Positions 11,936 to 39,496 of a stretch of DNA of 64,000 bases are shown here, in pieces. Under the pieces are notes generated by a model, which did not search any database, was not told the origin of the DNA, and saw only the letters and a program-made list of their open reading frames with translations. Within the stretch, counting starts at the first letter, position 1. Each line of letters begins with the position of its first letter. This DNA is from an uncultured Candidatus Saccharibacteria bacterium (lineage in GTDB: Bacteria; Patescibacteriota; WWE3; UBA101185; UBA10185): NCBI GenBank assembly GCA_964540135.1, contig CAZILK010000001.1, forward strand, positions 17,843 to 81,842, in the 5' to 3' direction. A program made the position numbers and the translations under genes.

Positions 11936-14152
11936 TTAGTCTGTTTCGTAGGAAATCCCGTGTTTAGCTAAAACATCACCTCGATATACCCAAGTTTGAA
12001 CATATCCTCTGTAGCTTATGGTAAATTCTGCAGGAACTTCTTTACCGGGTACGGGAACAGTTCTTTTAAGACCGCCTCTTGTGAATATAAAATAATCGTC
12101 CTTTGTGTAAGGTCCGAGCCTTTCTTTATGCGGTATATGATCTGAATCGACATTTATCCCCAAAAGTATTTCGTTTGGTTGCTTACCTTTGTATTTATAT
12201 AACCAAGCACCTCTAAAATTGGCAGTTATAATTGTTTTTTCACAGCTCTTTGTCTTAAGACATCTCTTAAAAATCTCTTTTTGGGCAATCATAATTTCTT
12301 CCCCCCACCCTTGCCAGGCAACATCCATTCTCCCTTGAACAAAGTTCTTATTATAGCTTTCAGACTGATCAGACCAGAATGGTCTAAATGCTGCATATAC
12401 AGGTGCAAATGGCCAAAGCTCAATAACTAGTACAAGAGCAGTAACTGCTATTAATGCTTTCTTTTTAACTAAGCTTTGGTTTGAGTTTATAAAACTGTAT
12501 AGCCTGATTAATATATAGAGCTCAAATATATAGTGGTACAAATCGTAATACCTATTCACAAGCCAAGTTGATGTTAATGCATATCCAAGAGGCATAAGAA
12601 AACACATAATCACAGCTAAGTCCCAGATGAAACTATACTTAGTCTTGTTTGAGTTACGCCTTGTGAAATCAAATATAACAATAAAAGCGAGCAGTACCCA
12701 AAATACTGAGGGAATTGCATTTATAAAAACTGCATAATAAAACGCTATATTTTTAATATGAAACTCTTGTGCGGTGGTCGCACCTGGATACCATGTATAG
12801 TTCGCATTGGGATTTTTGTCATGACCGTAGGTTCCTTTTGGTGCTTGTACAAAAAACCCTTCGTAAGCCTGGGTATTAAATGTTCCCCAGACTCCAATTG
12901 CAAGTGCGGCAATCATTACAATTAAAGCAAGCTTGGAGCTTATTTTGGAGCCTATGTTATCAAAGAGGTTATCAAACTTACTTAATAAAATAGAACATAC
13001 ACAGCTTATTACGACTAGCGCTCCCAAAAGATAGTAAGAGTAAGTTGAGTTGAAATACGCAAGATTGCTGGCAATCTTAGCACTCACAAGAGGCCACCCC
13101 CACGATACAAGAGGGTAGAGTATTGAAACTGTACCTTTAGTCGGAAAATCAAGATCCCTAGCAACGCCTATTAATCCATACATTAAAAGAATCTCAATTA
13201 TACTCGCCACAACCCCTGCCGATATTACAAGAGGAATTATGTATAGCTTTTTGTACTTGTTGTAAGCTAGATAACCTAACATGATAAGCGATACGATGAT
13301 TAACGGTGATACATTTAGCTTTTCTTGTGAACCAGCCACTGATATTACAAGTGCGACAATAGTTAAGTTTAAATTTTTAGTTAAGTATGCTATGCCTAAA
13401 AGAAACATTGCAGCTGTTGCCACAAACATTGCATATAAATCATAGTTCGCAATCTTCCATGCGATTAAGTTCATCGGGGTAATGAGTGTAAACATCATAA
13501 AGAGAATAAACGTTAGAACAAACTTTTCTTCATCAGTTATTTTCAAAACATATTTTTTCAGTAAGCTAAAAATACCAAGCATCATCACAATACCCCCGAT
13601 CCAGTGCAGCATTTTAGCTACCGATAGGAGGCTGTTATAGTCTCCAGGTTTAAAAAGACTAAGAGGTATACCGATTAAAATATAGCTAAGTCTTAAAGCC
13701 CCGTTACCCCAAACTCCCATTTGAGCTGTGTACTTAATAGAGGCAAACTCCATAACCGATATACCCTCATCACTAGCAAGCATTTGAGAGGACTTTTCTA
13801 CCGATATATAGAACAGGAGGCCAATGAGGATAAGTAGTATGCCAATTGCCTTGTAGGATTTAACGTTTCTCTTTAAATAAAAAAAAGTAATTATAAGTCC
13901 AACAGATATGGTAATAAGTTCAAATAAATTAATACCAAGTACTGGCAAGAAAGGTTCAAAGTAACCAACTCCTTTTAACTTAGATGAGATTAAGATTCTG
14001 ATTGTGCAGTAAAAGAAAGCAACTATAAAAAGCCCAGCACACAGAGGCTTTATTCGTTGAGACTGTTTTTTTCTAAAGAGTAAAAAAGCTGTGTAAGCAA
14101 GAGTTGTAATATATAAAAACAGTGCTAAGTGAATTGTAATATCTGTAGTCAT
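11936..14152 (-). CDS. Large polytopic membrane protein (738 aa) with C-terminal soluble domain; possible GT-C-type transferase
   Basis: At least 12 hydrophobic helices in the first ~560 aa and a ~180-aa hydrophilic C-terminal domain; immediately upstream of the GtrB-like gene on the same strand. Confidence 0.5.
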   Translation of the reverse strand: MTTDITIHLALFLYITTLAYTAFLLFRKKQSQRIKPLCAGLFIVAFFYCTIRILISSKLKGVGYFEPFLPVLGINLFELITISVGLIITFFYLKRNVKSYKAIGILLILIGLLFYISVEKSSQMLASDEGISVMEFASIKYTAQMGVWGNGALRLSYILIGIPLSLFKPGDYNSLLSVAKMLHWIGGIVMMLGIFSLLKKYVLKITDEEKFVLTFILFMMFTLITPMNLIAWKIANYDLYAMFVATAAMFLLGIAYLTKNLNLTIVALVISVAGSQEKLNVSPLIIVSLIMLGYLAYNKYKKLYIIPLVISAGVVASIIEILLMYGLIGVARDLDFPTKGTVSILYPLVSWGWPLVSAKIASNLAYFNSTYSYYLLGALVVISCVCSILLSKFDNLFDNIGSKISSKLALIVMIAALAIGVWGTFNTQAYEGFFVQAPKGTYGHDKNPNANYTWYPGATTAQEFHIKNIAFYYAVFINAIPSVFWVLLAFIVIFDFTRRNSNKTKYSFIWDLAVIMCFLMPLGYALTSTWLVNRYYDLYHYIFELYILIRLYSFINSNQSLVKKKALIAVTALVLVIELWPFAPVYAAFRPFWSDQSESYNKNFVQGRMDVAWQGWGEEIMIAQKEIFKRCLKTKSCEKTIITANFRGAWLYKYKGKQPNEILLGINVDSDHIPHKERLGPYTKDDYFIFTRGGLKRTVPVPGKEVPAEFTISYRGYVQTWVYRGDVLAKHGISYETD

Positions 14153-20367: not shown

Positions 20368-21408
20368 ATGTTTCTAACAATTGCAATTCCAGCATATAAT
20401 AGACCGGATAACCTAGATGTACTTCTCTCAGGTCTCGTAAAGATCTTAACAGATGAAACTCAGGTTTATATTTCTGATGATGCCTCTCCGTTAGCCTCAG
20501 AAATCAGACAAGTTGTTGAAAAGTACACCGCTCTAAATCCAAACATAAAGTATTTTTTAAACGAGCAGAATTTAGGGTACAGCGGAAATGTGTTTAAGCT
20601 TTATGAGTTAAGCGATTCAAAGTATATCTGGTTTTTGTGTGACGATGATGTTGTTTTAGAAACATCAGTCAGCGATATCATCTCCAAGCTGAAAAAACAT
20701 GAGCCAACCGTTGCTGTTTTTAACCATACACAAATTGATCCATATGGCAGGAAAATAAAAGCTTTTTACGGGGATCACGATTTACTATTCACAGATGATG
20801 CGCAGTTTGAAGATGCTTCCCATTTGTTTAGAATCTGCTTTCTATCAACTCTTGTGGTTGAGAAGCTTGGAGATCTGCCAGAACTTAAAAAGACAGACTA
20901 TGCAAACAATATATTCGTTCAAATCAGCTTCTCGTTTTTGCTTCTTTCTAAAAAGTTTAAATTTGCTGAATTCACAGATGTAGTTTTACACCGTAATGTT
21001 GGCTTTAAATACGGTGAATTCTTTAAGTTTTACACAATAGATACTTTAAAATCGATTTACATTGTTGATCACTGTATATCAACCAAAAAATTCAAAGACT
21101 GGGCTATTAGAGATATGCCTACTGCTTTAAAGCTGTATCTTTCACAAAAACTAGGCCTTTTTAAATATTGGGGGAGACCCACTAAACAGTCTATAAGGTC
21201 TCTCTTTGATTATTACGGCATTTACGCTCTAGCTTTTCTCTCTTTCCCAGTTATTAGCTTTCTAACTCCGACCATTCTACTAAAAGCGCTATATTTCTTT
21301 CAATTAGTTCAAATCCACGGGTTTGAGCAAGCTAAAGTGTTATACAAAGAGAAAATTAACAGAGCGTATACTGATTCAAGGAAAACTGGTTTTACAACAT
21401 ACAAATGA
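20368..21408 (+). CDS. Glycosyltransferase family 2-like
   Basis: N-terminal LTIAIPAYNRPDNLDVLL...VYISDDASP resembles GT2-A; less canonical downstream. Confidence 0.6.
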   Translation: MFLTIAIPAYNRPDNLDVLLSGLVKILTDETQVYISDDASPLASEIRQVVEKYTALNPNIKYFLNEQNLGYSGNVFKLYELSDSKYIWFLCDDDVVLETSVSDIISKLKKHEPTVAVFNHTQIDPYGRKIKAFYGDHDLLFTDDAQFEDASHLFRICFLSTLVVEKLGDLPELKKTDYANNIFVQISFSFLLLSKKFKFAEFTDVVLHRNVGFKYGEFFKFYTIDTLKSIYIVDHCISTKKFKDWAIRDMPTALKLYLSQKLGLFKYWGRPTKQSIRSLFDYYGIYALAFLSFPVISFLTPTILLKALYFFQLVQIHGFEQAKVLYKEKINRAYTDSRKTGFTTYK

Positions 21409-23624
21409 AGAGATTTGAAAATATTTATTTAAAAATAGTTGAGTTTGTATTAAAGTTTTATTTACCTCTTGGTGTTGTATGTTATCTTTTGTTAGCTGTT
21501 ATTCTAGCTCTAAAATTTGTAAGAGTACTTGGGCCAAATGAGTTTATCTTTATTCATGACGAGTATTTAACCCTAGACAAATTTCACGCATTAAGAGCTT
21601 TTTTGGTACAAAATCCAATCAATTTTGGAACATCGGAGACAACAAACCTGATAGTCACTTTTTTTTCAAGGTGCTACTACCTTGTTAGTTACAGTGTGGG
21701 TATGAGTATTGCTGGCTCACAGCTTCTTCTCTTTAGTATAAAGCTGTTCTTTATAGGATTTCTCCCGTTTTTGGGTTTTAAGAAAATCGCGCAAACATTA
21801 TTCAATATCGATCTAGGCCCTTGTGAAACTCTAGACTTGAAAGCTTGTACAAAGACTTTAGGTAACCTAATTGGTGTAGTGCTTGTTGCTTTAGTCTATT
21901 CATTTAATACCTACACATTGATCTATTGGCATGGAAATAGCTTTGAGCTAACTCTTTTACTTTGTTACGCGTTAGCACCTTTAGCGTTTTACTATTTTCA
22001 TACTGCTTTATTTAAGAAACAAACAATCCTAGCAGATTTTCTTAAGCCAGTAGTTATCTTGTTTTTCATGTCATTTGCATTCTATCTATGTATTGTTTTT
22101 GTACTATTTTTAATGCTGTATTTCTTGCTAATTCATTTTGTGTATAAAACTGATGGAGTCAGTTTACTTAAAAGACTTGGTATTCTTTCACTGTTATACA
22201 TACCTTTCTTACCACTCTTTGGTCTCATCCCGTATGAAATGCTTTTTAGTTCTGTAAGTGGCATTAACACTAGCGGTGGAGAGACATTTAACAACCTTGC
22301 CGGTAGTCTACTTTACCCGCTTTTCATGTGGTATTCATGGGGGATATATACTTACTGGGATCATAGAAATATATTTACTTTTCATGACTTTTTTAAACAC
22401 TTACCTTATTTATTTTCACCGATTCTTGTTTATGTACTTCTACTCGTAAGCATCTTTAAAAACAGTTATAGAAAATATTTACTTATCTTTCTACTTATCT
22501 TTTTATGCTTCTTGTTTTTTATAAAAGGACCTCAAGAGCCTTTTGGCGAACTGTTTAAAGCCTTGCTGGAAAAAGTCCCAGTATTTAGAGTATTTAGATC
22601 TCCTGATAATAAATTTGGATTTGCACTGGTACTTGCCCTTTGTTTATCAACTCTTTCAATAGTAGACAGAGTCAATAAAAAACTGCTTTTGCCGGTACTT
22701 ATATTCATGCTTCTTGTTCAGTCTCATTTGTTGATTAATTCAAAAGCAATAATCGGTGAGAATACCGATGATTCACGAGACCGGATAATCAGGTATACAC
22801 AAAAGCAAGAGCAATTAATACAGTTTTTGAATTCAAAAAGTCTAGCTTACGAAAATATCTTGCCGTACCCGCCGGATGAGTTTGGCAACTTCACTTTAGA
22901 GGACGGAGATTACCATATAGGTCAGGAGCTTATTTCCAAGAGGGTAGCTCAACCATTTATTTTCTATTCTAAATACAGTGGTGTGAGTACAGAGGTGTTT
23001 TCCATGCTAACCGACTTTTTAGAAGAAAAAGATTTTGAGATCGTAAAACAACTTCCTATAAATTATCTTCTAGTTCGAAGAGATATAGCGCATGTTGACT
23101 ACAACAATCACTTTATCGAGCGTATAAATCGGAGCTTTCCACTGCTTTTCTCCAATGAAACTTATAAGTTGTATGACATCGGTGCGCCAAGTATTCTTAG
23201 TTCAGATAACCTTATTGCTTTTAATGCTGTGAGTCCTATTCATTACAAACTCAAAGTAGATACAACAAGTGCATCTACTTTAACTTTTATGCAAAGTTAT
23301 AATCCCAAGTGGAAGTTATATGAAATAACTGAAGCCGAGTACCTAGCCTGTGATAACGAGAGCTGTAGGCATAGGCAGAAGCCTTTTCTTTCTGAGTTAG
23401 CTGTTCCATTTAAAGAGTCTCATTTCGAAAATTCACACAAGAAAAGCATGCTTGGTATGAATGAATGGGATTTAGATGGAACGAACCAAGATGTTAAGTA
23501 TTACTCGCTGTATTTCTCGCTCCAAAGTTACTTTTATTACTCCGTTCTTTTAGCAGGAGTGTACCTAATGTTTATGTTGTTAATTATAGCTACAAATCGG
23601 TATTCAAACAGAAATGCCAACTAA
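21405..23624 (+). CDS. Large polytopic membrane protein (739 aa), paralogue of 23614-25698; putative glycan polymerase / GT-C-like (YfhO- or arabinofuranosyltransferase-like architecture)
   Basis: About 11 TM helices, then a ~270-aa hydrophilic domain and one C-terminal TM; shares conserved blocks with the next ORF (YYLVSYS.G, N.YT...WHG, KG.Q.PFGE.F......V..F.VFR..D..FGF..VL.L. Confidence 0.55.
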   Translation: MKRFENIYLKIVEFVLKFYLPLGVVCYLLLAVILALKFVRVLGPNEFIFIHDEYLTLDKFHALRAFLVQNPINFGTSETTNLIVTFFSRCYYLVSYSVGMSIAGSQLLLFSIKLFFIGFLPFLGFKKIAQTLFNIDLGPCETLDLKACTKTLGNLIGVVLVALVYSFNTYTLIYWHGNSFELTLLLCYALAPLAFYYFHTALFKKQTILADFLKPVVILFFMSFAFYLCIVFVLFLMLYFLLIHFVYKTDGVSLLKRLGILSLLYIPFLPLFGLIPYEMLFSSVSGINTSGGETFNNLAGSLLYPLFMWYSWGIYTYWDHRNIFTFHDFFKHLPYLFSPILVYVLLLVSIFKNSYRKYLLIFLLIFLCFLFFIKGPQEPFGELFKALLEKVPVFRVFRSPDNKFGFALVLALCLSTLSIVDRVNKKLLLPVLIFMLLVQSHLLINSKAIIGENTDDSRDRIIRYTQKQEQLIQFLNSKSLAYENILPYPPDEFGNFTLEDGDYHIGQELISKRVAQPFIFYSKYSGVSTEVFSMLTDFLEEKDFEIVKQLPINYLLVRRDIAHVDYNNHFIERINRSFPLLFSNETYKLYDIGAPSILSSDNLIAFNAVSPIHYKLKVDTTSASTLTFMQSYNPKWKLYEITEAEYLACDNESCRHRQKPFLSELAVPFKESHFENSHKKSMLGMNEWDLDGTNQDVKYYSLYFSLQSYFYYSVLLAGVYLMFMLLIIATNRYSNRNAN

Positions 23625-25698
23625 GAAATACTTGCCCTATATCGCATCTATCGTAATAGCATTACTTTTTACTTTCACAACATTTAAAGGTGTAAAAAAC
23701 AACGAATTCATTTTTATTTCTGATCAATTTATAAAAGTTAGTTTTGAGGAGGCATCAAAATCTTTTCTGCATTTACGCAAGCTTGAAAATCTTGGAGTTC
23801 ACAATGCGTGGCAAAGCACTGTACAATTTTTTGATTCCATTTATTATTTGGTATCGTATAAGATTGGTTTAACTGTTCTTCATAGTGAAATGCTACTGCA
23901 TTTCATCATCACCTTTCTTACACTAGTCGTATCATTTGAGGCATTCAAAAGACTAAACGAGAAAGTTTTTGGTAATACTTCTACCCTCTCATCTTTTATT
24001 GTTGCGCTATTTTATACTTTTAATCCCTATACGTTTGTTTTGTGGCATGGCGGAGTATATAACTTGGGATCGTGCTTAACCTATGCTTTTGCACCAACCC
24101 TACTTTATTTGGTGTATAAACTTACTTTCTTAAAAAGTTCTGTTAGTACCGCGTTAGCTCTTTCTGTAGTTCTGTTTTTATCTTCATTTGTGTTTTGGAT
24201 GCTAGCTCCAATCTTGTTTTATTTACTTTTGCTAACACCAGTATTTCTTATCATAAACACTTACAAAACAAAAAGCTTTCCTTTAAGACAGTTAGGTTTG
24301 TTTTCACTAACAGCTTTGGTGTATCTGCTGCTTGTTGGTTTCATACTACACTCAATTCTTTTTGAGTTTTTCAATACTGCCGGGTACGCAAGTCCTTTCT
24401 CCACACCGACCTACGGTAATCAGGGAGGGGGACTTAATTATATTCTCAAGCTCTATTTTTCTTGGGGTATTTATAATGTCTGGACACCAAGGACTATATA
24501 CCCAAAGCCAATTACAGATTATTTCTTTTCCAATTTCTATCTTTTTGGATTATTTAGCCTTTATGTTATGGCTTTACTTCCTATGTTGTACTTTTTAGTA
24601 AAAAAGAGTTTAGCTAAACTAGCCCCTCTTTATGTGATCCACTTAGTTTTACTATTAATCTTTATGTTTTTTGCAAAGGCAAATCAGCCTCCGTTTGGAG
24701 AAGTCTTTGATTGGTTATATAGTAATGTAGCTTTTTTCAAAGTTTTTCGAACGGCTGATGTTAGATTCGGGTTTGTAATTGTATTGTGCCTTAGTATCCT
24801 TTTGTTATATAGCTCAAAATTTATAAAAAGGTCTATTTTTGTAGTTCTTACAATTTTTTCCATCATTCTACTTGTTTTCTGGCTATTTACAGGTAAAGCA
24901 ACAAGGGGGTTTGAAATTGACAACATTTCGTACGATAGAATTGTTTATCAAACAGAGGATAGTAAAGGGCTCATAGCGTTTTTAAACGCGAACAAATTTT
25001 TAGATAGGTACGTCCTAATCTTACCAGGATTTTCGTATCATACTTTTGAACTTAAGAAAGGGGATTTCTTTGTTGGCCAAGATATTATCTCAAAGTTTGT
25101 CACCTCCCCTTTCATTTATCCCAATCAGGGAACAACTGATTTATATCTTAGTAGTTATCAGGCGCTTGCAGCCATACTTAAGGCGCGAAGCTACGATCAG
25201 TTTAATAATCTACCGGTGAAATATATTGTATTAAGGCGTGATATCAGCTGTACAGACTGTTATACACAAGAATTAGAAGATTTAGAAAAGAGTCGGGTTT
25301 TTAAGCAAGTATTTGCAAACAGCACTTTTAAAGTTCTAGAGGTGCCGGATAGTGTTGGCATAGTTGAAAATGTAAAAAACTATGTAATGAAATCTCCAGT
25401 CTATATACCTATTTTCAAACCTGAAAGTACAATTAACTTAAACTTAAGTTATAACGATAGCTGGAGATTATATTACGGATCTAAGATTAATCCGCTTAGT
25501 TTAGTGAGAGATTATTTTGCAGATAATGGCCTAAAACCGCGTCAAGTTGGGCCTTTCATGCAGTTTACTAATATTCCACAAGCAGAATCATATACTTTGG
25601 TTTTCGCACCGCAGATTTTGTATTACATGTTACTAGAACTAAGTTTAGTCACAGTGTCGCTTGTTTTAATTTACTTATATAATAGAAAAGATGTTTAA
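23614..25698 (+). CDS. Large polytopic membrane protein (694 aa), tandem paralogue of 21405-23624
   Basis: Same architecture and conserved blocks as the upstream ORF (FIFISDQF, YYLVSYKIGLT, NPYTFVLWHGG, QPPFGEVFDWLYSNVAFFKVFRTADVRFGFVIVLCLS); overlaps its neighbours by 8-11 nt. Confidence 0.55.
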   Translation: MPTKKYLPYIASIVIALLFTFTTFKGVKNNEFIFISDQFIKVSFEEASKSFLHLRKLENLGVHNAWQSTVQFFDSIYYLVSYKIGLTVLHSEMLLHFIITFLTLVVSFEAFKRLNEKVFGNTSTLSSFIVALFYTFNPYTFVLWHGGVYNLGSCLTYAFAPTLLYLVYKLTFLKSSVSTALALSVVLFLSSFVFWMLAPILFYLLLLTPVFLIINTYKTKSFPLRQLGLFSLTALVYLLLVGFILHSILFEFFNTAGYASPFSTPTYGNQGGGLNYILKLYFSWGIYNVWTPRTIYPKPITDYFFSNFYLFGLFSLYVMALLPMLYFLVKKSLAKLAPLYVIHLVLLLIFMFFAKANQPPFGEVFDWLYSNVAFFKVFRTADVRFGFVIVLCLSILLLYSSKFIKRSIFVVLTIFSIILLVFWLFTGKATRGFEIDNISYDRIVYQTEDSKGLIAFLNANKFLDRYVLILPGFSYHTFELKKGDFFVGQDIISKFVTSPFIYPNQGTTDLYLSSYQALAAILKARSYDQFNNLPVKYIVLRRDISCTDCYTQELEDLEKSRVFKQVFANSTFKVLEVPDSVGIVENVKNYVMKSPVYIPIFKPESTINLNLSYNDSWRLYYGSKINPLSLVRDYFADNGLKPRQVGPFMQFTNIPQAESYTLVFAPQILYYMLLELSLVTVSLVLIYLYNRKDV

Positions 25699-27322
25699 TT
25701 CTTCACTTATTTACGATTACAACGACATTGCGTCGTATTTTATCTCGGCACTTCGCGAAAGAAGTGGAGTAAACCACTTTTCTTTAGTTGAAGCATCTCC
25801 AATACTCACAAAGCTCGAGCCTTTAAACGGGCTTATAAATTTATTCTTTTTCAAACTGTTTGATCAAATACTGGCAATAAACTTGATTTCCATCATGTAC
25901 TTAGTACTTGGGTTTACTGTGTCTTACATTTTATTTAAAAAAATAAGTAAGAATAATGTCTTGTCGATCTGTTTTGCATTTTTCAATACCTTCTCAATTT
26001 ACAATCTCTATCGAATAATTTCGTTTACAACAGACCTGATGCAGTTTTTTATGTTCCCATTAACCATCTATTTGTTATATACAAAAAAACTTAAACCGCA
26101 TCTTCTAGCTTTATTGTGTCTTGTTGGTTTTGGACTGAGCATATACTCATCGTTTATGTGTGTTGTTGTAATTCTTTTTTGGTATCTCAGCGATTTGTTT
26201 TTCTCACAAAGCATTTTAAGTCAAAGACTTAAGGAAGTTACTAAAAACTTTTTATTATTTCTTGCGCCGCTATTTGTTGTTGGGGCAGTTCTTTATAGCA
26301 GTGTAATCTTACCTTCTCTGCCTTACTTTGCACGGTTCACGAGAGATGAGAACAAGCTAATTAGGAACATGAAAACAAAGTACAGACCAATTGAGGATTT
26401 TTACAGCTTAAGCTTTAGACCTTGGTATTTTGTAATTCCACCAAAAAACTCAGTTTTTTTTGGAGAAGTTGGCAGATCGGCATATAAAAGAATAAGTGAA
26501 ACCGGTTACTTTCTTGCTGATGATTATACAGAGGAAGAAGCAGCGGGGAGTTATTTAGGTTGGCATTTTATTTTAGGCGCTCTTTTTGTGTATGCCTATT
26601 TAATGTATAGAAAACTCTCTCACAGCACAGCAAGAGGTTTTGACTCAATCCTGGAAAACGAGACTCTAATTTTAAGACTCGGGTTAATTACAATCTTAAT
26701 TCTTCTTGTAAGCCACCCACCCACCTTTACAATAAGTGGTATTATATTTGTAACTCCAACTTACTTCATTTATAAGTTTCTCCCAGTATTTAGAACACTT
26801 GTCAGGTTCAGTGCATTCATATATTTATTTATCTTGATTATAAACCTTATCTTATACACGGACTTATACAACAAGATGACTGCCAAATTGCGAGTTTTGT
26901 TTGTGCCGGTTTTACTTATCTCCACGTTTGTAGTTATGCAAATTAAGCTGCCGATAGTAGATGTTAAAAGAGCTCCTTCTGATATCGCCTTCATTAAGAA
27001 TTACATGAGAGAGCCGTATAACTTTGCTGTATATCCAAAAGGGGACTATTATTCCATTTTTTGGCTGTTAAATACTAAAAAGCTATTGATAAACCCTGTC
27101 GATTTTATTAACGAAGAGTCTGGATTTGACTCAAATAAGTTCAGCAAATCTCTTAATACGGTGGAAGGCTTGGCAGCTGCAAGGTCGTATGAGGCAAAGC
27201 TGTTGGTTGTGTATAAAAAGCAATTACCGCTAAAAACTGCTCAAAAGGATTTAGAATTCTTTACAACAGTGCTAGGGGAGCCTGTTTTTGAGTCTAGTGA
27301 GGCTGTAATATTTACTTTGTAA
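25691..27322 (+). CDS. Polytopic membrane protein (543 aa), function unknown
   Basis: At least 10 hydrophobic helices; translationally coupled (8-nt overlap) to the preceding membrane-protein gene. Confidence 0.5.
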   Translation: MFNSSLIYDYNDIASYFISALRERSGVNHFSLVEASPILTKLEPLNGLINLFFFKLFDQILAINLISIMYLVLGFTVSYILFKKISKNNVLSICFAFFNTFSIYNLYRIISFTTDLMQFFMFPLTIYLLYTKKLKPHLLALLCLVGFGLSIYSSFMCVVVILFWYLSDLFFSQSILSQRLKEVTKNFLLFLAPLFVVGAVLYSSVILPSLPYFARFTRDENKLIRNMKTKYRPIEDFYSLSFRPWYFVIPPKNSVFFGEVGRSAYKRISETGYFLADDYTEEEAAGSYLGWHFILGALFVYAYLMYRKLSHSTARGFDSILENETLILRLGLITILILLVSHPPTFTISGIIFVTPTYFIYKFLPVFRTLVRFSAFIYLFILIINLILYTDLYNKMTAKLRVLFVPVLLISTFVVMQIKLPIVDVKRAPSDIAFIKNYMREPYNFAVYPKGDYYSIFWLLNTKKLLINPVDFINEESGFDSNKFSKSLNTVEGLAAARSYEAKLLVVYKKQLPLKTAQKDLEFFTTVLGEPVFESSEAVIFTL

Positions 27323-27343
27323 GCAATATGTTAAGATAAATCT

Positions 27344-27754
27344 ATGCAATTCCTGAACTTTAATATGTTTTTGGTTTTATTGCTTACCTTATTTGTTATT
27401 TTCTATATTTTGGATCTTGATTCGCTTGTTAAACTTGAAAACAAAAACATTTTGTTAAAAAGACCTATCACCAATCTCTTACTTTTGGGAATAGTATTAG
27501 GACTTATTTCACGTGGTGGTATGCAAAACTTCTTAGTCTTTTTAGTTTCTGTTGCCTTTGTTCTCTTTGTTATCTTTCTTTTCTCTCTTGATAGAAAGCT
27601 TATGTTTTTGCTGTTGGGGGTGTTACTACTTTCACTGCCATTTCTTTATTCCTTAAACTTGCTGTTTATAGCAATACATCTCGCTACTCTTATTTTTTTA
27701 CTTCTTTTGGTTGTTGTGTGTAAGGAGCTATCACGTGAAAGCAGTCTTTCTTAA
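27344..27754 (+). CDS. Small hydrophobic membrane protein (136 aa, ~4 TM)
   Basis: Leu/Phe-rich; four hydrophobic segments; sits between membrane-protein genes in the same operon. Confidence 0.4.
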   Translation: MQFLNFNMFLVLLLTLFVIFYILDLDSLVKLENKNILLKRPITNLLLLGIVLGLISRGGMQNFLVFLVSVAFVLFVIFLFSLDRKLMFLLLGVLLLSLPFLYSLNLLFIAIHLATLIFLLLLVVVCKELSRESSLS

Positions 27755-29726
27755 ATTATTGTTCTTTGGCTTTGTTCTTTTTAATACAGCGTACGCTGAA
27801 TCCAAATACGAGTACTATAAAGAGCATTTCGAAGCTATTAAAACTTCAGCAATGCGTGAATCAGCAATAAACACCAAGATTTTGGTTCGTGGTAAAGGCT
27901 TTTTTCGCGATGATTATGATATTCTTTTTACTTCTAAATTAACACCAAATCAAATGGAGAAGTTTAAAACAAATGCGATTCTCATTTGCGATAAGACCTA
28001 TCAAGTGACTAGTGATATTGCATGTGGGATTGATAGCGTGACAGGCAAGGGTTTACAAGTTACAGATTTTGAAAAGTTAAAAATATATTCTCTAACAAGC
28101 AGTACCGGAACTTTAATAATTATTCCTGAAAGTAATTTTGTATTACCAGCACATAAGAATACACTTAGAAAGTTTTTAACTAACCTATACAAATCACAGT
28201 TAAATCCATCTGCCTCGAATTTTGCTAAATATGAATATATCAATAATATCTATTCAAATAGTGTAACAAAGATTGTTCTCTTGGTTGCGCTCCTCCTTTC
28301 AGTCATAGGGTTAGCCCGATTTATTCATAATTTTAAACCTGCGGTTAAAAAGTCTATATTTACGATACTTCTGGCAGATTTCATTACACTGATCCCAGTC
28401 TCTCTATTTGTTTATACTCGTGAGTCAATACCCCTAGCTTTAGATAGCTATGCATCCTTCATTACACGGTTGTTAGATCCATTTATTTTCATACAGTCAC
28501 TAACAACATACTCATTTATGGAGATTGCCGTTGCCTCGATGTTATATGTTTTCATAATACTCAGTTTTGTACTGTTTGTTTTACCAACTGTACATGGATT
28601 TGTTGCAAATTCCTTCACAGACCTTAATGTTAAGAACAAGGACTACTCAAAATATGTCCTGCTGCTTACATGGGCTTTAACTGCTCTTGTTTTAATTACC
28701 CCCGCTGTTAAAAATCCGTATTTACTTTTCGTTCTTCTTATACTAGTTTTTATCTTAAACAACATACGAAGTGTTGATAAAAAAGAGAGCAAAGATAGCT
28801 ATAAAAAGATTGTTATAGTTACAACACTTGTGGCTCTAAATGTTTTCTTTTACCTATTTGTTAATGTATTAAACTTAATACCCGGTAAAACATTGAAATT
28901 ATTTGGTGGATCGTCTCTACTTCCCACTACATTTAACGAAGCAGCTGCAGTTGCTATAGAGCCGTTGTATCCAGCATCAAATTCTCTTGTGTTTGCAGAC
29001 AAGTACCTAATCTATCACCCAAGCATTAAGAATATTGTTAATGTTCCTATCTCGAAATTCACAAGCACCGCAAATCATATTATTGTCCTACCTGATATTG
29101 AGGACTCATTGTTTAAAATTATCCACGAAGATAATGAATTAAAATACAAACTAATGACAAACAATAAGACAAGTTATCTGACTTTTAATGCTGACAGTCA
29201 AAAACAGTATATGCTGAAATTAACATTTAAATGTTCAAAAGAATTAGCTAGCTTTGACGGTAATTTTAAGCCATTTTACTTTAATAGCAGGCTTGGGGAG
29301 TTTGTGACAGATGGTGCCAGACTGCCATTTATGACTTTCACAGGGTGTACCTATATAGAAGGTAATGAGGGTACATATAGCGTACCTCTAACTTTACCTG
29401 AAGACTTTATGACCGGTGAGATTATTATGAAGTTCAACTTTTCGGTCAGTGATTATGTTGATGATATGACTTTATTTGAGAATAATATAGAGAAAGACTT
29501 CGACTATATTAACTTGACGACAGTTGAAAATGTAGCCTATCAAATCTATACAGATTACACTCAACCGGTATACGTTTATAGTGATATTTCAGAGGAGGTT
29601 AAATTTAGTAGTAACTACCTAATCTCTCAAAATATTAACAGCTTATTGTCAAAAGGTTTAATAAACGGGCACTTTACACTGTGGTCAGATACATTTGGGG
29701 CTTCAATCAAAAACACTAACAAATGA
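27735..29726 (+). CDS. Secreted/membrane protein: signal peptide, N-terminal extracytoplasmic domain, ~6 TM core, C-terminal ~270-aa extracytoplasmic domain
   Basis: Probable GTG start giving VKAVFLKLLFFGFVLFNTAYA-ES (signal peptide with AYA cleavage site); the ORF-track Met at 27711 overlaps the previous gene; hydrophobic core at residues ~180-400. Confidence 0.5.
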   Translation: MKAVFLKLLFFGFVLFNTAYAESKYEYYKEHFEAIKTSAMRESAINTKILVRGKGFFRDDYDILFTSKLTPNQMEKFKTNAILICDKTYQVTSDIACGIDSVTGKGLQVTDFEKLKIYSLTSSTGTLIIIPESNFVLPAHKNTLRKFLTNLYKSQLNPSASNFAKYEYINNIYSNSVTKIVLLVALLLSVIGLARFIHNFKPAVKKSIFTILLADFITLIPVSLFVYTRESIPLALDSYASFITRLLDPFIFIQSLTTYSFMEIAVASMLYVFIILSFVLFVLPTVHGFVANSFTDLNVKNKDYSKYVLLLTWALTALVLITPAVKNPYLLFVLLILVFILNNIRSVDKKESKDSYKKIVIVTTLVALNVFFYLFVNVLNLIPGKTLKLFGGSSLLPTTFNEAAAVAIEPLYPASNSLVFADKYLIYHPSIKNIVNVPISKFTSTANHIIVLPDIEDSLFKIIHEDNELKYKLMTNNKTSYLTFNADSQKQYMLKLTFKCSKELASFDGNFKPFYFNSRLGEFVTDGARLPFMTFTGCTYIEGNEGTYSVPLTLPEDFMTGEIIMKFNFSVSDYVDDMTLFENNIEKDFDYINLTTVENVAYQIYTDYTQPVYVYSDISEEVKFSSNYLISQNINSLLSKGLINGHFTLWSDTFGASIKNTNK

Positions 29727-29800: not shown

Positions 29801-30523
29801 ATGTTTAAAACTAACCTCTTTTCCAAATTTCCATTTTTATCAAATGGGAAAAATAGAGATGAGTGGATAAGAAATAAACTTCTCGCAATTCCTGATGGCA
29901 TGTCTATCCTTGATGCTGGGGCAGGTGAATGTCCATATAAGATTTATTGCAGCCATCTAAATTACACAAGCCAAGACTTTGGCAAGTACGATGGTGTTGG
30001 GGATTCTGTTGGGTTACAAACAGCTAAGTGGGATAACTCCAGGCTAGACATAGTTTCAGATATAACTGCAATTCCAGTTGAATCAGCAAGCTTTGACTAT
30101 ATTTTATGCTCTGAAGTTATTGAGCATGTTCCATTCCCAGACCAGGCAGTAAAAGAAATGGCTAGAATTCTAAAATCTGGTGGGAGGCTAATATTAACGT
30201 CCCCCTTTTGCTCGCAAACTCACTTTGCTCCTTACCACTTTTGTACGGGGTTTAACATCTATTGGTATGAAACAGTTTTAGGAAAATACGATTTAGAACT
30301 AGAAGAGGTTGTTAAAAACGGCAATTATTTTGACTATGTCTTGCAGGAGTTAACTAGATTGCCGATTGTAGGTATGAGATTCTCAAGCTTAAAAGTGTTT
30401 AGCTTGTTTTTATATCTATTCATTATCCCTCTCGTGTTTATACTTTTTTTGTTTAGTCTTGTGTGTAAAGACAGTAGCTCGCTCATGTGTTTTGGTTACC
30501 AGGTTGTAGCAAAAAAGAAGTGA
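29801..30523 (+). CDS. Class I SAM-dependent methyltransferase with C-terminal membrane anchor
   Basis: Motif I ILDAGAGECPY, LKSGGRLILTSP; C-terminal hydrophobic helix FSLFLYLFIIPLVFILFLF. Confidence 0.65.
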   Translation: MFKTNLFSKFPFLSNGKNRDEWIRNKLLAIPDGMSILDAGAGECPYKIYCSHLNYTSQDFGKYDGVGDSVGLQTAKWDNSRLDIVSDITAIPVESASFDYILCSEVIEHVPFPDQAVKEMARILKSGGRLILTSPFCSQTHFAPYHFCTGFNIYWYETVLGKYDLELEEVVKNGNYFDYVLQELTRLPIVGMRFSSLKVFSLFLYLFIIPLVFILFLFSLVCKDSSSLMCFGYQVVAKKK

Positions 30524-30667: not shown

Positions 30668-32140
30668 ATGAAAGTCACAATTATAAAGATTAGCTGTTTC
30701 GCATTTTTAATCTATTTTTTAGGTTTTCTCTTTTTAAATAAGAGTGGCATAAACACTCTTCCCATACAGTCAGAAGACACTGTTCCAGCAATGTTTTTAC
30801 CAGTGACTTTGATAAAAGAACGAACCATGTTTGCCGATACCTATGTGAAAATGATGAAAGAGCGTTACCCCCAGCCAGATGACAAGCTTGGTATTTTAGG
30901 TTACACGCCTTTTTATCTAAAAAAAGTAGTGAAACTAAGTGAGCCTTACAAAGATTGTCTAAAGCATCCTAAAGATGCCGTTTGTTCAGTTACTACAAAT
31001 AAGTATGAGACGCACTACATGACTGCTTTTACAGTAGTACCGGGTTTATTAATAACCCCTGTTTATCTTATTCCTCTTGCTTTTAACATGCCTGTTACCT
31101 GGGATAATCTTATACTTTTGTCTCACATCTCTTCAGCACTGATTGTTATGCTCTGTGGTGTTTTTATGTATATTCTGTTACGAAAATTCTTTCTAGCACG
31201 AAGTGGGGATGACTCAAAAGCAGTGCTTTTAACCTGTGTCTATCTTTTTGGTACAGTAAATTTTGCAATGGTTTCCCAGTCTTTGTGGCAACACGGGTTT
31301 GTACAATTATTTTTGATAATTGGTCTTATCTTTTTACAAACCGGACTCACAAAATATTCCAAGTCCTCGTTCATGTTGTCTGGTCTTTTTCTTGCTCTCG
31401 CTGTTTTATCAAGACCAACAGCTGCACTTTTTGCGGTACTACTGTACGTATTAATACCAATAACCTTTAGGAGAGATTTTCCAAAGCTAGTACGGGGAAC
31501 AGTTTACCAAGCTTTAGGAGTTCTTCCTGCCGCCTTTTTCTTTTTTTGGTATAACGCTAAATACTTTGGGAGTATTGCAAATCAAGGGTACGCAGGTCAG
31601 TTTTTTAATAGTTGGTTATCTCCTTTTCCTGAAGGGTTTTTAGGTATCTGGGTTTCACCAAGTAAAGGTATCCTAATTTACTCTCCAGTTCTCTTGTATA
31701 TTTTCTTTGGTATCTTAAGAGTTGTTAAAAACAAGAAGATTGAAAACAAAAGCATCTATATTATATCCGCTATAATTATCCTACTTCACACACTTCTCAT
31801 GGGTAAATGGAAGCATTGGTATGGAGGATTTTCTTTTGGTTATAGATTAGCTTCAGATGCTCTGCCGTTTTTTATTTTGCTCCTTGTTCCATATATTACT
31901 TCTAGTTTTCATGAGAAATACAAAAAAGTCTTCTATGCTCTTTTTGCTTTTTCAGTTTTCGTTCAAATTTCAGGCATGGTCTTTTTTGATGGTATTTGGC
32001 ATAACGCATACGATGATGGGTTTAGAGATACAAAATGGCTATGGTCTGTTAGAGACTCTGAAGCAGGTTTTAATGTGAGGAGGGTACTAGTGAAGTCAGG
32101 GTTTCTTGAGCGTGCCTGTCCGGAGTGTTTGAGTAACTAA
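30668..32140 (+). CDS. Polytopic membrane protein, putative GT-C-type (ArnT/PMT-like) glycosyltransferase
   Basis: 490 aa, about 11 TM helices; the segment SGLFLALAVLSRPTAALF resembles ArnT-family helices; glycan locus. Confidence 0.45.
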   Translation: MKVTIIKISCFAFLIYFLGFLFLNKSGINTLPIQSEDTVPAMFLPVTLIKERTMFADTYVKMMKERYPQPDDKLGILGYTPFYLKKVVKLSEPYKDCLKHPKDAVCSVTTNKYETHYMTAFTVVPGLLITPVYLIPLAFNMPVTWDNLILLSHISSALIVMLCGVFMYILLRKFFLARSGDDSKAVLLTCVYLFGTVNFAMVSQSLWQHGFVQLFLIIGLIFLQTGLTKYSKSSFMLSGLFLALAVLSRPTAALFAVLLYVLIPITFRRDFPKLVRGTVYQALGVLPAAFFFFWYNAKYFGSIANQGYAGQFFNSWLSPFPEGFLGIWVSPSKGILIYSPVLLYIFFGILRVVKNKKIENKSIYIISAIIILLHTLLMGKWKHWYGGFSFGYRLASDALPFFILLLVPYITSSFHEKYKKVFYALFAFSVFVQISGMVFFDGIWHNAYDDGFRDTKWLWSVRDSEAGFNVRRVLVKSGFLERACPECLSN

Positions 32141-35449: not shown

Positions 35450-36588
35450 AAGTGTTAATGCTTGGGAGAACTGATATAAAAAGTAATCCTGGAGGCGATC
35501 TTATTCAGATTGAACAAACTGCACTCGAACTTCGAAAGCTTGGTGTTCAGGTTGATTTAAAAACCACTTGGCATGTTGATATGTCTAAATACGACCTTGT
35601 TCATATTTTTCAACTTGACTGGGTATCAGAGTGTTTTATCTACGCAAGAGAAGCAAAAAAAGCAGGTAAAAAGGTTGTTTTGTCCCCAATACATCACAGT
35701 ATTAAAGAAGTGGAGCTGTGGGAAAAACAGTTCGCGTTTGGTATGCGAAAACTAGCCAGTACCTTCCTGCCTACCCAATTTTTACGGGATACAGCAAAGA
35801 TAGTTTACAGAGCACTATTTTTTGATCACGCAAAGCTCCTTCCTGCTTTTTATGCAGGAATTTATGGACTTAAAAGTCTTCATCAAAAGACTCTTGAGTT
35901 ATCAGATCTTGTTCTTGTACAAACACAGGCTGAGGTAGTTGATCTGAAGTCTACCTACGGTGTTGATTTTAACTGGCATGTTGTACCAAACGGAGTAGGG
36001 TCAAACTATATAGAAACTGCCGGTCAATTAACTGAGAATACGGTCCCGCCTCTAGCTTTCACTGACTATATTCTGTGTGTAGGAAGAATTGAGGCGAGGA
36101 AGAATCAATTAAGTGTAATAAAAGCTGTTGAGAAATTGAGGAACGAAACAAATAAAGATCTAAAGCTTGTATTTGTTGGAAGACTTAGTAGAACACAGAA
36201 AAGTTATGTAAATCACTTTTTAACTGAGGTTAAGAGTTATGACTGGATAGCTCATCTTGAGTGGATTGACTACTCTAAAATGCCAAGTGTTTATAAGTTT
36301 GCAGCAGTTTCTGTATCTGCTAGTTGGTTTGAAACAACAGGCCTTACTAGCCTTGAGGCTTTGTACTGTGGTTGTAATGCTGTTGCAAGTGGAGCGAGGG
36401 CTTTTGAGGTGCTGGGTGATCTTGTTGAGTACTGTGATCCTTCAGATATTGATAGCATTAAGGACGCTATCAATAAACAATTAACTAAACCAAAACCTAT
36501 ACTCAGTAACGAGTTTAAACGCAAATACACTTGGCAAAAGAGTGCCGAAAAAACATTAAAATTATATAATGAGGTTCTTAATGACTAA
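35446..36588 (+). CDS. Glycosyltransferase family 4
   Basis: GT-B organisation; ETTGLTSLEALYCGCNAVAS motif; 4-nt overlap with the upstream GT4. Confidence 0.8.
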   Translation: MKVLMLGRTDIKSNPGGDLIQIEQTALELRKLGVQVDLKTTWHVDMSKYDLVHIFQLDWVSECFIYAREAKKAGKKVVLSPIHHSIKEVELWEKQFAFGMRKLASTFLPTQFLRDTAKIVYRALFFDHAKLLPAFYAGIYGLKSLHQKTLELSDLVLVQTQAEVVDLKSTYGVDFNWHVVPNGVGSNYIETAGQLTENTVPPLAFTDYILCVGRIEARKNQLSVIKAVEKLRNETNKDLKLVFVGRLSRTQKSYVNHFLTEVKSYDWIAHLEWIDYSKMPSVYKFAAVSVSASWFETTGLTSLEALYCGCNAVASGARAFEVLGDLVEYCDPSDIDSIKDAINKQLTKPKPILSNEFKRKYTWQKSAEKTLKLYNEVLND

Positions 36589-39496
36589 TTTTGAACCCAT
36601 TGTGGGGCTTGTAATATTTGTGGTTGGGTTGTACGCAGTTATTCGTGACTGGCGCTTCTTCATTTATATTCTGCTTTTTTTTAGTGTATTTCTGCATAAA
36701 GAATTGTTTAGTTTATACAAATGGGATTTGATGCCGATTAGATTTTTAATGGCAGCGGTATCGGTTTTTGTATCATTTACGGCTATTCGTAAACTTCTTT
36801 GGTTGTTTAAGAGAAGAAAGTTGTTGACTGGGGATGTACTTGCCCAGAAAGCGGCAGTCCTTGAGCTGCTTCACGACCCGTTTATAGTTTTCCTCTCACT
36901 TCTATGGCTAGTTAGGTTGATATCTCTTCTTTTCTCGGCAGATACTACTTCAAGCATCACGCTGTTTGCTTTCTTCACAACAATTTACTTTGGTGGTTTG
37001 TTCGTATACGTTAAGCTTAAAAAATCTACTACAGATAGCCTTAGGTTTATTAATTTCTATATTTTTATCGGGCTTTTGCTTTGTTTATTTGGCTTTGTTC
37101 AGTTGTTTGTCCATTATAGTTACGGACTAACAATTGGCTCTTTGTGGGCAATTCCAAAACACTTACCAAGAGTCGGGAGTATCTTTTGGGATGTGAATCA
37201 TTTTGGCGGATTTATAGCGTCTCTTTTACCACTATGTGCTGTTCAGGCTTTGACCTCTCACACTTTGAAAGCCAAAGCCTATAACTTGTTTTGCATCTTG
37301 TCGTTCACAGTAATTCTTTTCTTAACTAACTCAAGAACATCGTGGATGTTGATGGCTATCTCAGTTGTAGTTTTCTTGTTTTTACTTGTTTATAAAAAGT
37401 TAAAAGTCAAAGGTATTTTACTTGGGCTTGTTATAGCTCTTTTTGTAGCTGGTTTCTTTGTCTATTCCTACTCAATAAAAGATTCTGAATTTAGACTTGT
37501 AGTTAAGAATTATTTTCACTACAGGTTAGACTCATTTGATTCACATTTTCTACTTCTCAGGGGAGCCTCACAAGTTTTTGAAAAGCACCCTATTTTTGGA
37601 GGTGGTTATGGCAGTTTTTTTGAACAGTTCAAAAAAACTGAAGTTTCCTCCCTTTACTTAAGCCGGGATCCTGCAGGATTAATTACAAAAGTACCGGCTC
37701 ACACTATTTGGGGTGAGGTGGCTGCAGAAACTGGTATCCTAGGTCTTGGGGTTTTCATACTGCTATTTATCTTGTTGGTATCGGTTCCGCTCTATAACTT
37801 TTTAGTAAGCTCGTACCACAAAGATTATCTTATTCATGGTGCGATCGTTGCTTCAATTGTTGGTTGGTTCACAGCAGGTATTTTTTATTCTTATAACTCA
37901 GAATTCTTTTGGTTTGTGTTAATTTTATATCTTGCGTATTCAGCCAGTACTTACTTTAAGCTAGAAAATAAGCCGCTAGATTTACAAGCATTTAAACGGA
38001 TGATCAGTTATATTGAGCAGAAGTTTAATGCTGGGTTTATATTTCTGGCTCTCATTTCATTTACTTTGATTTTTATCAATCTTGGGAAACATACATTTAT
38101 AACTTGGGATGAAGCAATTTATGCAAAAATCGCAAAGAATATGGTTGAATCAGGGGATTATCTTAGGCTTAGATGGCTTATGGATAAAACTTGGTTTGAA
38201 AAGCCCCCTCTTTATTTTTGGACAACCGCATTGTTTATGAAAATCTTTGGCATAACTGAGCTTGCAGCAAGACTAACATCAGCTATTGCTGGATTTGGGA
38301 CTGTTCTTGTAACTACTTATTTTGCAAAAAGGGCATTTGGGAAAAGTGTCGCGTATCTTTCAGGTCTGATCTTACTAACAACTTTTCAATTTTTATATTA
38401 CTCCAGAGCAGCCATGCTTGATGTTACAGTTACATTTTTTATGGTCTGTGCATTAACTATTTATTTCCTGCGAGCAAGAAATACTACAACCTTGTTATTA
38501 TCAGGAGTTTTTGTTGGGTTGGCAGCTATGACCAAAGGTGTCGTTGGCTTTTTACCACTACTAATAATTTTTATGTTTGAAGTTTCACATGCTTACTTTG
38601 ACGAGATAGGTTTTAAAAAAGCTTTAAAAAACAGCGTAATTAACTCAAGTATTATCTTTCTCTTCTCACTGATCATCTTTCTCCCGTGGCACCTTTATAT
38701 GTTTTCTATATATGGACCAAGATTTATTGATAACTATTTTATTTACCATGTTCTTCAAAGAGCAACTGAATCAATTGAAGACAAAGGTAGGCCATTCTTT
38801 TGGTACTTAATCGTGTTAAAAGTTAGTATGCGGATTTGGTTTATACTCCTAATCCCAACATTTATATTTAGTTCACTTCTTGTGTGTGTAAGAAGGATTC
38901 CCGAAAGACTTGGGCTTTTTCTGTCAAAACAAGAAAAGCTTGGGATTGTCTATTTGTTGATTTGGGCTTCTGTAACATTCTTGTTTTTCTCATTACCTGT
39001 ATCAAAGCTAATTTGGTACATAATCCCGATTTATCCGGTTCTTGCAATCATTTGTGCGGTGGGCTTTATCTTCTCAGTTAAAAGTATATATAAAATACTG
39101 CCTGTAGGAGTGTTTAAAGATATTACATACATAAGTGCATTTGCACTTGTATTAATCGGTCTGACTTATTTTTATATCGAAAGAAAGAAAGTTTATACCG
39201 ATAATTTAACTTTCCCTCAAGTATCTGTTATTTTAAAGAGCAATGGGCGTTTTCCAAATGATACTGTGAGAATAGATAAAGTAGATTATCCTTTGATGTA
39301 TTATTATCGAAAAGGTCCGTACACACCTACCAGATTTAAGGAGATAAAAGCGCAAATGGCTCTTTTACCTCCTGGTTCAAGGCTAGTCTTCATAACAAGT
39401 GAAAGAAGGTATCAAGAGCTTTCAGCTCTTTACCCATTAATTGAGCTTTACTGGCGAGAAGATGATTTCGTTTTAGCTTCAATTACCAACCTATGA
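36569..39496 (+). CDS. Fusion protein: N-terminal O-antigen ligase/polymerase (Wzy_C) domain plus C-terminal ArnT/PMT_2-type GT-C glycosyltransferase domain
   Basis: Residues ~230-420 carry Wzy_C hallmarks (LTNSRTSWMLMA; R...PIFGGGYGSF; VPAHTIWGEVAAETGILGLGVFIL). Residues ~480-975 carry the ArnT/PMT_2 signature (TWDEAIYAKIAKNMVESGDYLRLRW...FEKPPLYFWTTALFMKIFG...RLTSAIAG). One uninterrupted 975-codon ORF. Confidence 0.8.
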   Translation: MRFLMTNFEPIVGLVIFVVGLYAVIRDWRFFIYILLFFSVFLHKELFSLYKWDLMPIRFLMAAVSVFVSFTAIRKLLWLFKRRKLLTGDVLAQKAAVLELLHDPFIVFLSLLWLVRLISLLFSADTTSSITLFAFFTTIYFGGLFVYVKLKKSTTDSLRFINFYIFIGLLLCLFGFVQLFVHYSYGLTIGSLWAIPKHLPRVGSIFWDVNHFGGFIASLLPLCAVQALTSHTLKAKAYNLFCILSFTVILFLTNSRTSWMLMAISVVVFLFLLVYKKLKVKGILLGLVIALFVAGFFVYSYSIKDSEFRLVVKNYFHYRLDSFDSHFLLLRGASQVFEKHPIFGGGYGSFFEQFKKTEVSSLYLSRDPAGLITKVPAHTIWGEVAAETGILGLGVFILLFILLVSVPLYNFLVSSYHKDYLIHGAIVASIVGWFTAGIFYSYNSEFFWFVLILYLAYSASTYFKLENKPLDLQAFKRMISYIEQKFNAGFIFLALISFTLIFINLGKHTFITWDEAIYAKIAKNMVESGDYLRLRWLMDKTWFEKPPLYFWTTALFMKIFGITELAARLTSAIAGFGTVLVTTYFAKRAFGKSVAYLSGLILLTTFQFLYYSRAAMLDVTVTFFMVCALTIYFLRARNTTTLLLSGVFVGLAAMTKGVVGFLPLLIIFMFEVSHAYFDEIGFKKALKNSVINSSIIFLFSLIIFLPWHLYMFSIYGPRFIDNYFIYHVLQRATESIEDKGRPFFWYLIVLKVSMRIWFILLIPTFIFSSLLVCVRRIPERLGLFLSKQEKLGIVYLLIWASVTFLFFSLPVSKLIWYIIPIYPVLAIICAVGFIFSVKSIYKILPVGVFKDITYISAFALVLIGLTYFYIERKKVYTDNLTFPQVSVILKSNGRFPNDTVRIDKVDYPLMYYYRKGPYTPTRFKEIKAQMALLPPGSRLVFITSERRYQELSALYPLIELYWREDDFVLASITNL

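Follow-up and report, generated by a model that had tools for sequence, protein, structure and literature searches.

We examined a 64,000-nt stretch (the window) of contig CAZILK010000001.1, from an uncultured Candidatus Saccharibacteria bacterium, and found in it a cassette, all on the + strand, that encodes a glycosyltransferase family 2 (GT2) enzyme followed by the membrane proteins here named A to F. A, B and C have diverged within a single branch of GT-C glycosyltransferases whose nearest known fold is that of mycobacterial AftD, and beside them F is a probable fourth GT-C, resembling the protein O-mannosyltransferases (PMTs) and ArnT. Most probably A, B, C and F are outward-facing enzymes that add sugars carried on polyprenyl-phosphate to a surface glycan, with D and E as accessory proteins. 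Statements made here on the families of A, B and C are drawn from sequence and predicted structure. These GT-C families are new and unannotated, in a known enzymatic mould. The cassette is composed as follows:

20368 to 21408, + strand: GT2 glycosyltransferase (GT-A fold), 346 aa; Pfam Glycos_transf_2, E=2e-18.
21405 to 23624, + strand: protein A, 739 aa, AftD-like GT-C; 11 transmembrane (TM) helices, then a soluble domain on the extracytoplasmic side and a single TM helix at the C-terminus.
23614 to 25698, + strand: protein B, 694 aa, built like A, of which it is an ancient paralogue.
25691 to 27322, + strand: protein C, 543 aa, GT-C distantly related to A and B, DUF6311-like.
27344 to 27754, + strand: protein D, 136 aa, small membrane protein with about 4 TM segments by hydropathy.
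27735 to 29726, + strand: protein E, 663 aa from a GTG; a signal peptide, then two outer domains flanking a 6-TM core.
30668 to 32140, + strand: protein F, 490 aa, probable fourth GT-C (PMT_2 / LA_3751-like) by weak family matches.

A and B are clear paralogues, as a first-pass annotation of this DNA had proposed; they align with 31% identity across 685 aa (E=5e-81), and theirs is the sole strong paralogy among the 35 open reading frames (ORFs) of the surrounding locus. The motifs that it had quoted (YYLVSY, N.YT..WHG and PFGE...FRVFR..D.RFGF) are found in the A-B alignment and are conserved family-wide. B-type orthologues come after A-type ones in other genomes too. In every case the first gene matches A better and the second matches B better, with B scoring above A against the B-type sequences, which form a separate neighbour-joining clade; the duplication that gave rise to A and B thus predates these genomes. 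Among 5.8 billion clustered proteins we found 53 relatives of A, all unnamed or 'hypothetical' and none with a Pfam domain, whose named hosts are candidate division WWE3 or Patescibacteria.

The AlphaFold2 model of A, made with an alignment of 50 sequences, has a mean predicted local distance difference test score (pLDDT) of 89.7 and a predicted template modelling score (pTM) of 0.92. The layout described earlier, with about 11 TM helices, a soluble domain and a final TM helix, agrees for A with both this model and hydropathy. There are 11 N-terminal TM helices (TM1 at 19-39, TM2 at 102-132) with a long, low-confidence outer loop at 283-332, then a soluble domain, part alpha/beta and part beta-sandwich, at about 446-704 and a closing TM helix at 705-738. 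When A was used as query for Foldseek, AftD provided the top three matches (E=1e-7, TM-score 0.49 on query length), and the next were PMTs and oligosaccharyltransferases (OSTs). A has the marks of the GT-C superfamily, a polytopic N-terminal module with the GT-C fold and an acidic residue in the first outer loop, and AftD (DUF3367) is its closest fold with the soluble GT-C domain included. The structural search thus supports the GT-C/AftD reading of the tandem paralogues. Assignment to an unrelated transporter family had been named as the outcome that would speak against it; MFS, GLUT and BetP transporters appeared only at non-significant levels (E>0.1, TM-scores of about 0.1), and a transporter identity for A was rejected.

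The conserved positions of A are D52, N168, W175, W312, Y315, K374, P379 and R460, together with the motif FRSPDxKFG at 397-405 (including F397, R398 and D401) and DR at 459-460. D52 (in HDE; B too has D) recurs in at least 90% of the 50 sequences and lies between TM1 and TM2, in the first extracytoplasmic loop (EL1). All these positions are predicted to lie in outward-facing loops, judging from the helix order in the model and from the clustering of Lys and Arg in short alternate loops. B retains the EL1 Asp and the motifs KxxQPPFGE, FRxxDxRFGF and DRI.

C is likewise a GT-C enzyme, a distant relative of A and B. BLASTP of A against C was negative; the relation showed in profile-profile comparison only, where the C and A/B families aligned over 421 columns (probability 89%, E=2e-6), running into the soluble domain. 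The predicted structure of C best matches PMTs and OSTs, and its profile gave no meaningful match to PDB sequences. In the profile alignment the first TM helix of C pairs with TM2 of A, so C begins directly in the equivalent of outer loop 1; it is without the canonical TM1, the C-terminal beta domain and the final TM helix. TM1 is absent from all 49 aligned C homologues, and an N-terminal extension is ruled out in six genomes by an in-frame stop 1-13 codons before C. D12 of C (IYxYND), present in at least 90% of the 49 sequences, aligns with the post-TM1 Asp of P0137, a relative that does bear TM1, and C keeps many invariant Arg, Pro, Tyr and Trp residues besides. Behind the first TM helix of C comes the Lys-rich FKKISK, as would be expected if that helix ran from out to in and the N-terminus lay outside. 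The N-terminal 45-58 or so residues of C, including the conserved Asp, must cross to the outside without a signal peptide. The 84 relatives of C are all unnamed Patescibacteria proteins, three of which (P0056, P0111 and P0137) carry a precomputed match to PF19830 (DUF6311). P0137, the most distant of these, aligns over the whole length of C, and a PF19830 scan of C and its 49 aligned members gave no match at E<=0.1.

F matches the NCBIfam model LA_3751/LA_3752 putative glycosyltransferase (E=4e-16) and Pfam PMT_2 (E=3e-5). Both matches fall under the curated cut-offs by which our Pfam and NCBIfam scans were judged, which is why we call it a probable GT-C. Its orthologues, of 46-59% identity, come after E in the related loci that we number L001, L003/4/7, L008 and L011. 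At the other end, GT2 orthologues of 42-53% identity lie upstream of A in those related loci that hold upstream sequence, and a hydrophobic segment at about 280-320 (a C-terminal hairpin) and the C-terminal motif NRAYTD.RKTGF are conserved in them. An assignment of this GT2 to the GtrB, ArnC or dolichyl-phosphate mannose synthase type was tried and rejected, the matches being to the N-domain only (PglI, the best in PDB, at E=0.003, and 5tze at E=0.006).

The cassette is found in five distinct metagenome-assembled genomes (MAGs), two labelled WWE3 and two automatically labelled Saccharibacteria. The full order GT2-A-B-C-D-E-F occurs in L001, L003/4/7, L008 and L011. In L001 the GT2 of about 347 aa is followed by proteins of 706, 691, 538, 130, 657 and 492 aa; in L003, L004 and L007 (a WWE3 MAG) A to F measure 705, 754, 560, 119, 713 and 477 aa; L008 and L011 are arranged alike, with E split into two ORFs in L008. 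L006 (WWE3 GW2011_GWB1_41_6) has GT2-A-B-C-D-E and then, at the usual place of F, a further A/B-like copy (L006:18790-19839), 38% identical to B's N-terminus and truncated where the locus ends. The proteins of the window share with their L001 orthologues 53% identity for GT2, 44% for A, 41% for B, 51% for C, 59% for F, 29% for D and 24% for E. Loci labelled Roizmanbacteria, Levybacteria and 'beta proteobacterium' have an A-type gene without the rest of the cassette; the GT2 adjoins it in the Roizmanbacteria and Levybacteria loci, and B-like sequence lies elsewhere in the Levybacteria and 'beta proteobacterium' loci. The last of these is L013 (CAWGHS010000021.1), labelled 'uncultured beta proteobacterium', and L008, L010, L011 and L014 are among the loci labelled 'uncultured Candidatus Saccharibacteria'. 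The clearly named relatives are all WWE3 or Microgenomates-type Patescibacteria, and the odd labels may come from automatic taxonomy or binning and not reflect the true distribution.

The first-pass annotation had described A to E as a unit of five translationally coupled genes of no obvious known family. All five ORFs are present where it placed them (E was first listed as 27711-29726), and Pfam and NCBIfam scans of A to E gave no match near any curated cut-off, only noise at E 0.005 or worse. The unit itself is larger: the end of the GT2 gene and the start of A share 4 nt (ATGA), and F comes after E in most loci. Overlaps of 8-11 nt had been reported along the unit, and are right for A/B (11 nt) and B/C (8 nt); C and D are instead separated by a gap of 21 nt. 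E had been given as 671 aa, and is likelier to be 663 aa from a GTG at 27735, 7 nt behind an AAGGAG ribosome-binding site; this start, which the signal peptide and public gene calls also favor, leaves D and E overlapping by 20 nt. Promoter and terminator scans of 18.5-33.5 kb gave counts equal to shuffled expectation, and an Rfam scan of the window gave no match.

D and E are orphans without family assignment. D has positional orthologues in five other loci (119-139 aa, 20-29% identity), and across the six orthologues no residue apart from M1 is invariant. None of the six matches GtrA (PF04138) at E<=10, and there was no other Pfam match. The sole PDB match of D, to CdsA (E=6e-4), spans hydrophobic helices and was taken as compositional. 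E has a classic signal peptide, MKAVFLKLLFFGFVLFNTAYA/ES, and its hydropathy shows six hydrophobic segments (about 172-384) between outer domains of roughly 150 and 270 aa. When 1.84 billion representative proteins were searched exhaustively with phmmer, only 27 relatives appeared, all of like size, where a word-index search had returned E alone; no Pfam or PDB relation was found, and Pfam scans run member by member on the C, D and E families likewise gave nothing. Positional orthologues share 20-26% identity with it. E evolves much faster than its neighbors: GT2, A, B, C and F are 41-59% identical to their L001 orthologues, and E 24%. Its invariant or near-invariant positions are P131, P397, P429, C500, G537, C538 and Y615, and also C85, D86 and C97, so that each outer domain has one Cys pair (C85/C97 and C500/C538). 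This pairing, together with the near lack of conserved polar residues, suggests a structural or binding protein rather than an enzyme. The possibility that E is a degenerate GT-C was considered and rejected, hhalign giving probabilities of 3% against the A/B profile and 13% against the C profile.

The cassette lies within a single glycan locus of about 43 kb (256 to about 43220). Its other genes encode a PMT_2 GT-C, a weak Wzx-like protein, GDP-mannose 4,6-dehydratase (Gmd) with an epimerase, transferases (two GT2, a GT11, a Glyco_trans_1_2 protein and GT4 enzymes), a flavin adenine dinucleotide (FAD) oxidoreductase (PRK07233), several methyltransferases, an AsnB-type amidotransferase, Bac_transf and DUF4012. 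Two of its genes matter for what follows:

10888 to 11844, - strand: GtrB-family polyprenyl-phosphate hexosyltransferase, full-length match to 5EKP.
29801 to 30523, + strand: S-adenosylmethionine (SAM)-dependent methyltransferase, 240 aa; Pfam Methyltransf_11, E=1e-13; C-terminal TM anchor at 194-231.

The GtrB protein matches Synechocystis GtrB (5EKP) over its full length (E=7e-86), ArnC (E=1e-45) and, below the cut-off, the NCBIfam model PgfS (E=3e-80). No other synthase of a lipid-phosphate-sugar donor can be recognised in the window. The TM-anchored methyltransferase sits between E and F in this window only; in L001, L003, L008 and L011, F follows E directly or past a short non-coding gap, with no methyltransferase between.

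Mycobacterial AftD (PF11847; PDB 6W98 and 6WBX) has, like A, an 11-TM GT-C module, a soluble outer domain, one or more C-terminal TM helices and an acidic residue in the first outer loop (D41 in AftD, D52 in A). In AftD, residues K39, D41, E251, K361 and D474 around the equivalent cavity are essential, three carbohydrate-binding modules are present, and a C-terminal bundle, TM13-16, binds acyl carrier protein (bioRxiv 10.1101/2019.12.22.885152). A has neither the modules nor the bundle, with one C-terminal TM helix instead, and at 739 aa is half the size of AftD (about 1,400 aa; 1,264-1,312 residues in deposited chains). Identity between the two is only 11-13%, neither A nor B reaches the PF11847 threshold, and the host, a Patescibacterium, shows no sign of an arabinogalactan pathway within the window.

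Other known systems share parts of this arrangement. The embCAB and Aft enzymes of Mycobacteriales are tandem, co-transcribed GT-C paralogues that act in turn on one envelope polysaccharide, working at the outer face with polyprenyl-phosphate sugar, and EmbA and EmbB heterodimerise. The cassette shares the tandem GT-C paralogues and differs in belonging to another GT-C branch (AftA and AftB rank below AftD, and no Emb is among the matches listed) and another phylum, and in adding the orphans D and E and a fixed upstream GT2. The three-component glycosylation systems of Gram-positives, YfhO/CsbB/GtcA (PF09586), unite a large GT-C with a membrane GT2 and a small protein of 4 TM helices. Their overall logic recalls the cassette, as does their GT-C, in which an outer domain stands between N-terminal TM helices and one at the C-terminus; however, A, B and C have no YfhO Pfam match, D has no GtrA match, and the adjacent GT2 is not like GtrB or CsbB. 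The uncharacterised, GT-C-like DUF6311 (PF19830) is carried by the C relatives P0056, P0111 and P0137, whereas C does not match its model and the C family has lost the TM1 that P0137 kept. Pmt1-Pmt2 (PDB 6P2R) are, like A and B, paired paralogues, and work as a heterodimer; unlike A and B they are eukaryotic, have a protein acceptor and carry an MIR domain in place of the AftD-like soluble domain. There was no PMT-family Pfam match for A, B or C.

The favored reading may be put as follows. A donor sugar would be placed on polyprenyl-phosphate at the cytoplasmic face by a membrane GT2 (for example the GtrB at 10888-11844) and then flipped, and each GT-C would move its sugar onto the growing cell-surface glycan at the outer face of the cytoplasmic membrane. 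The glycan backbone would be made on undecaprenyl-diphosphate by the GT2, GT4 and GT11 enzymes of the locus with the initiating Bac_transf. Catalysis may proceed via the first-outer-loop Asp (D52 in A, D12 in C) and the conserved outer-loop motifs, with the soluble domains holding the acceptor. By analogy with the mycobacterial Aft and Emb enzymes, the four would add different residues or linkages one after another, D and E serving as non-catalytic accessory or scaffold subunits. That these genes form an extracytoplasmic glycan machine had been suggested at the outset, and the idea gains support from the finding that C too is a GT-C. Faint sequence signals also speak for the GT-C reading, namely the two A-family members that touch PF11847 and the three C relatives that carry PF19830.

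Several points weigh against this reading. In sequence, A and B do not match PF11847 (GT-C_AftD, DUF3367) at E<=1, and among 50 A-family members only two touch it (best E=8.5e-4), neither reaching the threshold; YfhO (PF09586) is matched neither by A, B and C at E<=1 nor by the 50 A-family members at E<=0.1, and no solved YfhO structure was among the structural matches. Of the families proposed earlier for comparison (AftD/Emb, DUF3367, YfhO), AftD is thus borne out by fold, and the PF11847 and YfhO sequence models are not. Profile searches of A and B against PDB sequences returned nothing, so the GT-C assignment rests on predicted structure, and the correspondence of A's conserved residues to K39, D41, E251, K361 and D474 of AftD is putative. 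A GT-C fold cannot separate glycan acceptors from protein or lipid ones. The missing TM1 of C is unusual for an active GT-C. As to the donor, the GtrB gene is 10 kb from the cassette on the other strand, and the link with the cassette that had been suggested for it is not conserved at close range, as 14 related loci have no GtrB orthologue in the 10 kb around the cassette; the GT2 that is constantly adjacent does not, from its sequence, appear GtrB-like.

A, B, C and F could instead be protein glycosyltransferases in the style of PMT, PglB or Pgf, acting on secreted or surface proteins (such as S-layer, pilin or adhesin) or on E itself. PMTs and OSTs are the second-best structural matches of A and the best of C, among NCBIfam models the GtrB of the locus is matched best by PgfS, of a Streptococcus mutans protein-glycosylation system (E=3e-80), and E is a signal-peptide-bearing, fast-evolving, surface-exposed protein encoded within the cassette. 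We nevertheless consider this unlikely, as the initiating phosphoglycosyltransferase, Wzy_C domain, weak Wzx-like protein and many cytoplasmic glycosyltransferases of the locus are typical of polysaccharide assembly; no sequon-binding motif (such as WWDYG) turned up, although no search was aimed at one. The same structural neighbors include STT3, PglB and AglB, which use diphosphate-linked oligosaccharides, and in no other genome does a GtrB-type synthase adjoin the cassette; A, B and C might then be polymerases or ligases for en-bloc transfer from undecaprenyl-diphosphate oligosaccharides, in the manner of OST or WaaL/Wzy. That would be very unlikely in a locus that already has a Wzy_C protein fused to an ArnT/PMT-like module, and AftD, the nearest relative, and most of the neighbors (Pmt, AftA, ALG12, ALG9, ArnT and DPY19) use monophosphate-linked single sugars. 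The constant adjacency of A and B, coupled by their 11-nt overlap, and the lack of TM1 in C in every genome examined raise a further thought, that at least one of the tandem GT-Cs, C being the obvious candidate and A or B possible ones, is catalytically dead and serves as structural partner in a hetero-oligomer. GT-C paralogue heterodimers are known in Pmt1-Pmt2 (6P2R was among the structural matches) and EmbA-EmbB. We give this little credence: A-type and B-type proteins both retain the EL1 Asp and the outer-loop motifs, and C retains D12 at the EL1 position with its invariant Arg, Pro, Tyr and Trp, a pattern as in active enzymes.

A bolder proposal, which we hold to be rather improbable, is that A to E assemble into a single hetero-oligomeric complex that builds glycan outside the cytoplasm and is peculiar to WWE3 and related Patescibacteria. 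The ancient paralogues A and B would then be an obligate heterodimer, and C would gain its missing helix in trans, for example from D or from the C-terminal helix of a neighboring subunit. E, with its rapid evolution and disulfide-bearing outer domains, would be the subunit that holds the acceptor or serves in surface presentation, and the strain-specific glycan so made would mediate attachment of the episymbiont to its host.

With genomes near 1 Mb, Patescibacteria (the Candidate Phyla Radiation, CPR) are believed to live bound to other cells, and to our knowledge almost nothing is known of their envelope glycans. This lineage spends about 43 kb on a surface glycan, a big share for such a genome. 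The locus has at least five GT-C-type enzymes, three of them in families absent from Pfam and NCBIfam, and naming the AftD-like GT-Cs would cover about 140 public 'hypothetical' proteins. A and B have a compact, half-size AftD architecture, C is a naturally TM1-less GT-C, and the function of the orphans D and E could be specific to CPR cell-surface biology. The enzymology itself is expected to be conventional. In the full-text literature we found no paper linking Patescibacteria with GT-C enzymes, and DUF3367 mentioned in one paper only. The cassette is undescribed, its fold and chemistry being of a known kind.

The rest of the locus offers further observations. It holds at least seven SAM-methyltransferase genes, a GDP-6-deoxyhexose branch (Gmd and epimerase), a GT11 fucosyltransferase-like gene and the AsnB-type amidotransferase, which together suggest a heavily methylated, deoxyhexose-containing glycan. 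On the - strand, 9544-14152 encodes a 737-aa polytopic protein without Pfam or NCBIfam match, then GtrB, then the PRK07233 FAD oxidoreductase (E=2e-127), and is possibly a second donor-plus-transferase module. The 737-aa protein might be another GT-C (GtrC-like) enzyme; as a third paralogue of A and B it was rejected, BLASTP and single-sequence hhalign (an insensitive mode) being negative. The gene at 36569-39496 encodes the 975-aa fusion of an O-antigen-ligase/Wzy_C domain (243-397) with an ArnT/PMT-type GT-C module (about 490-880), and has a full-length homologue of 32% identity in L014.

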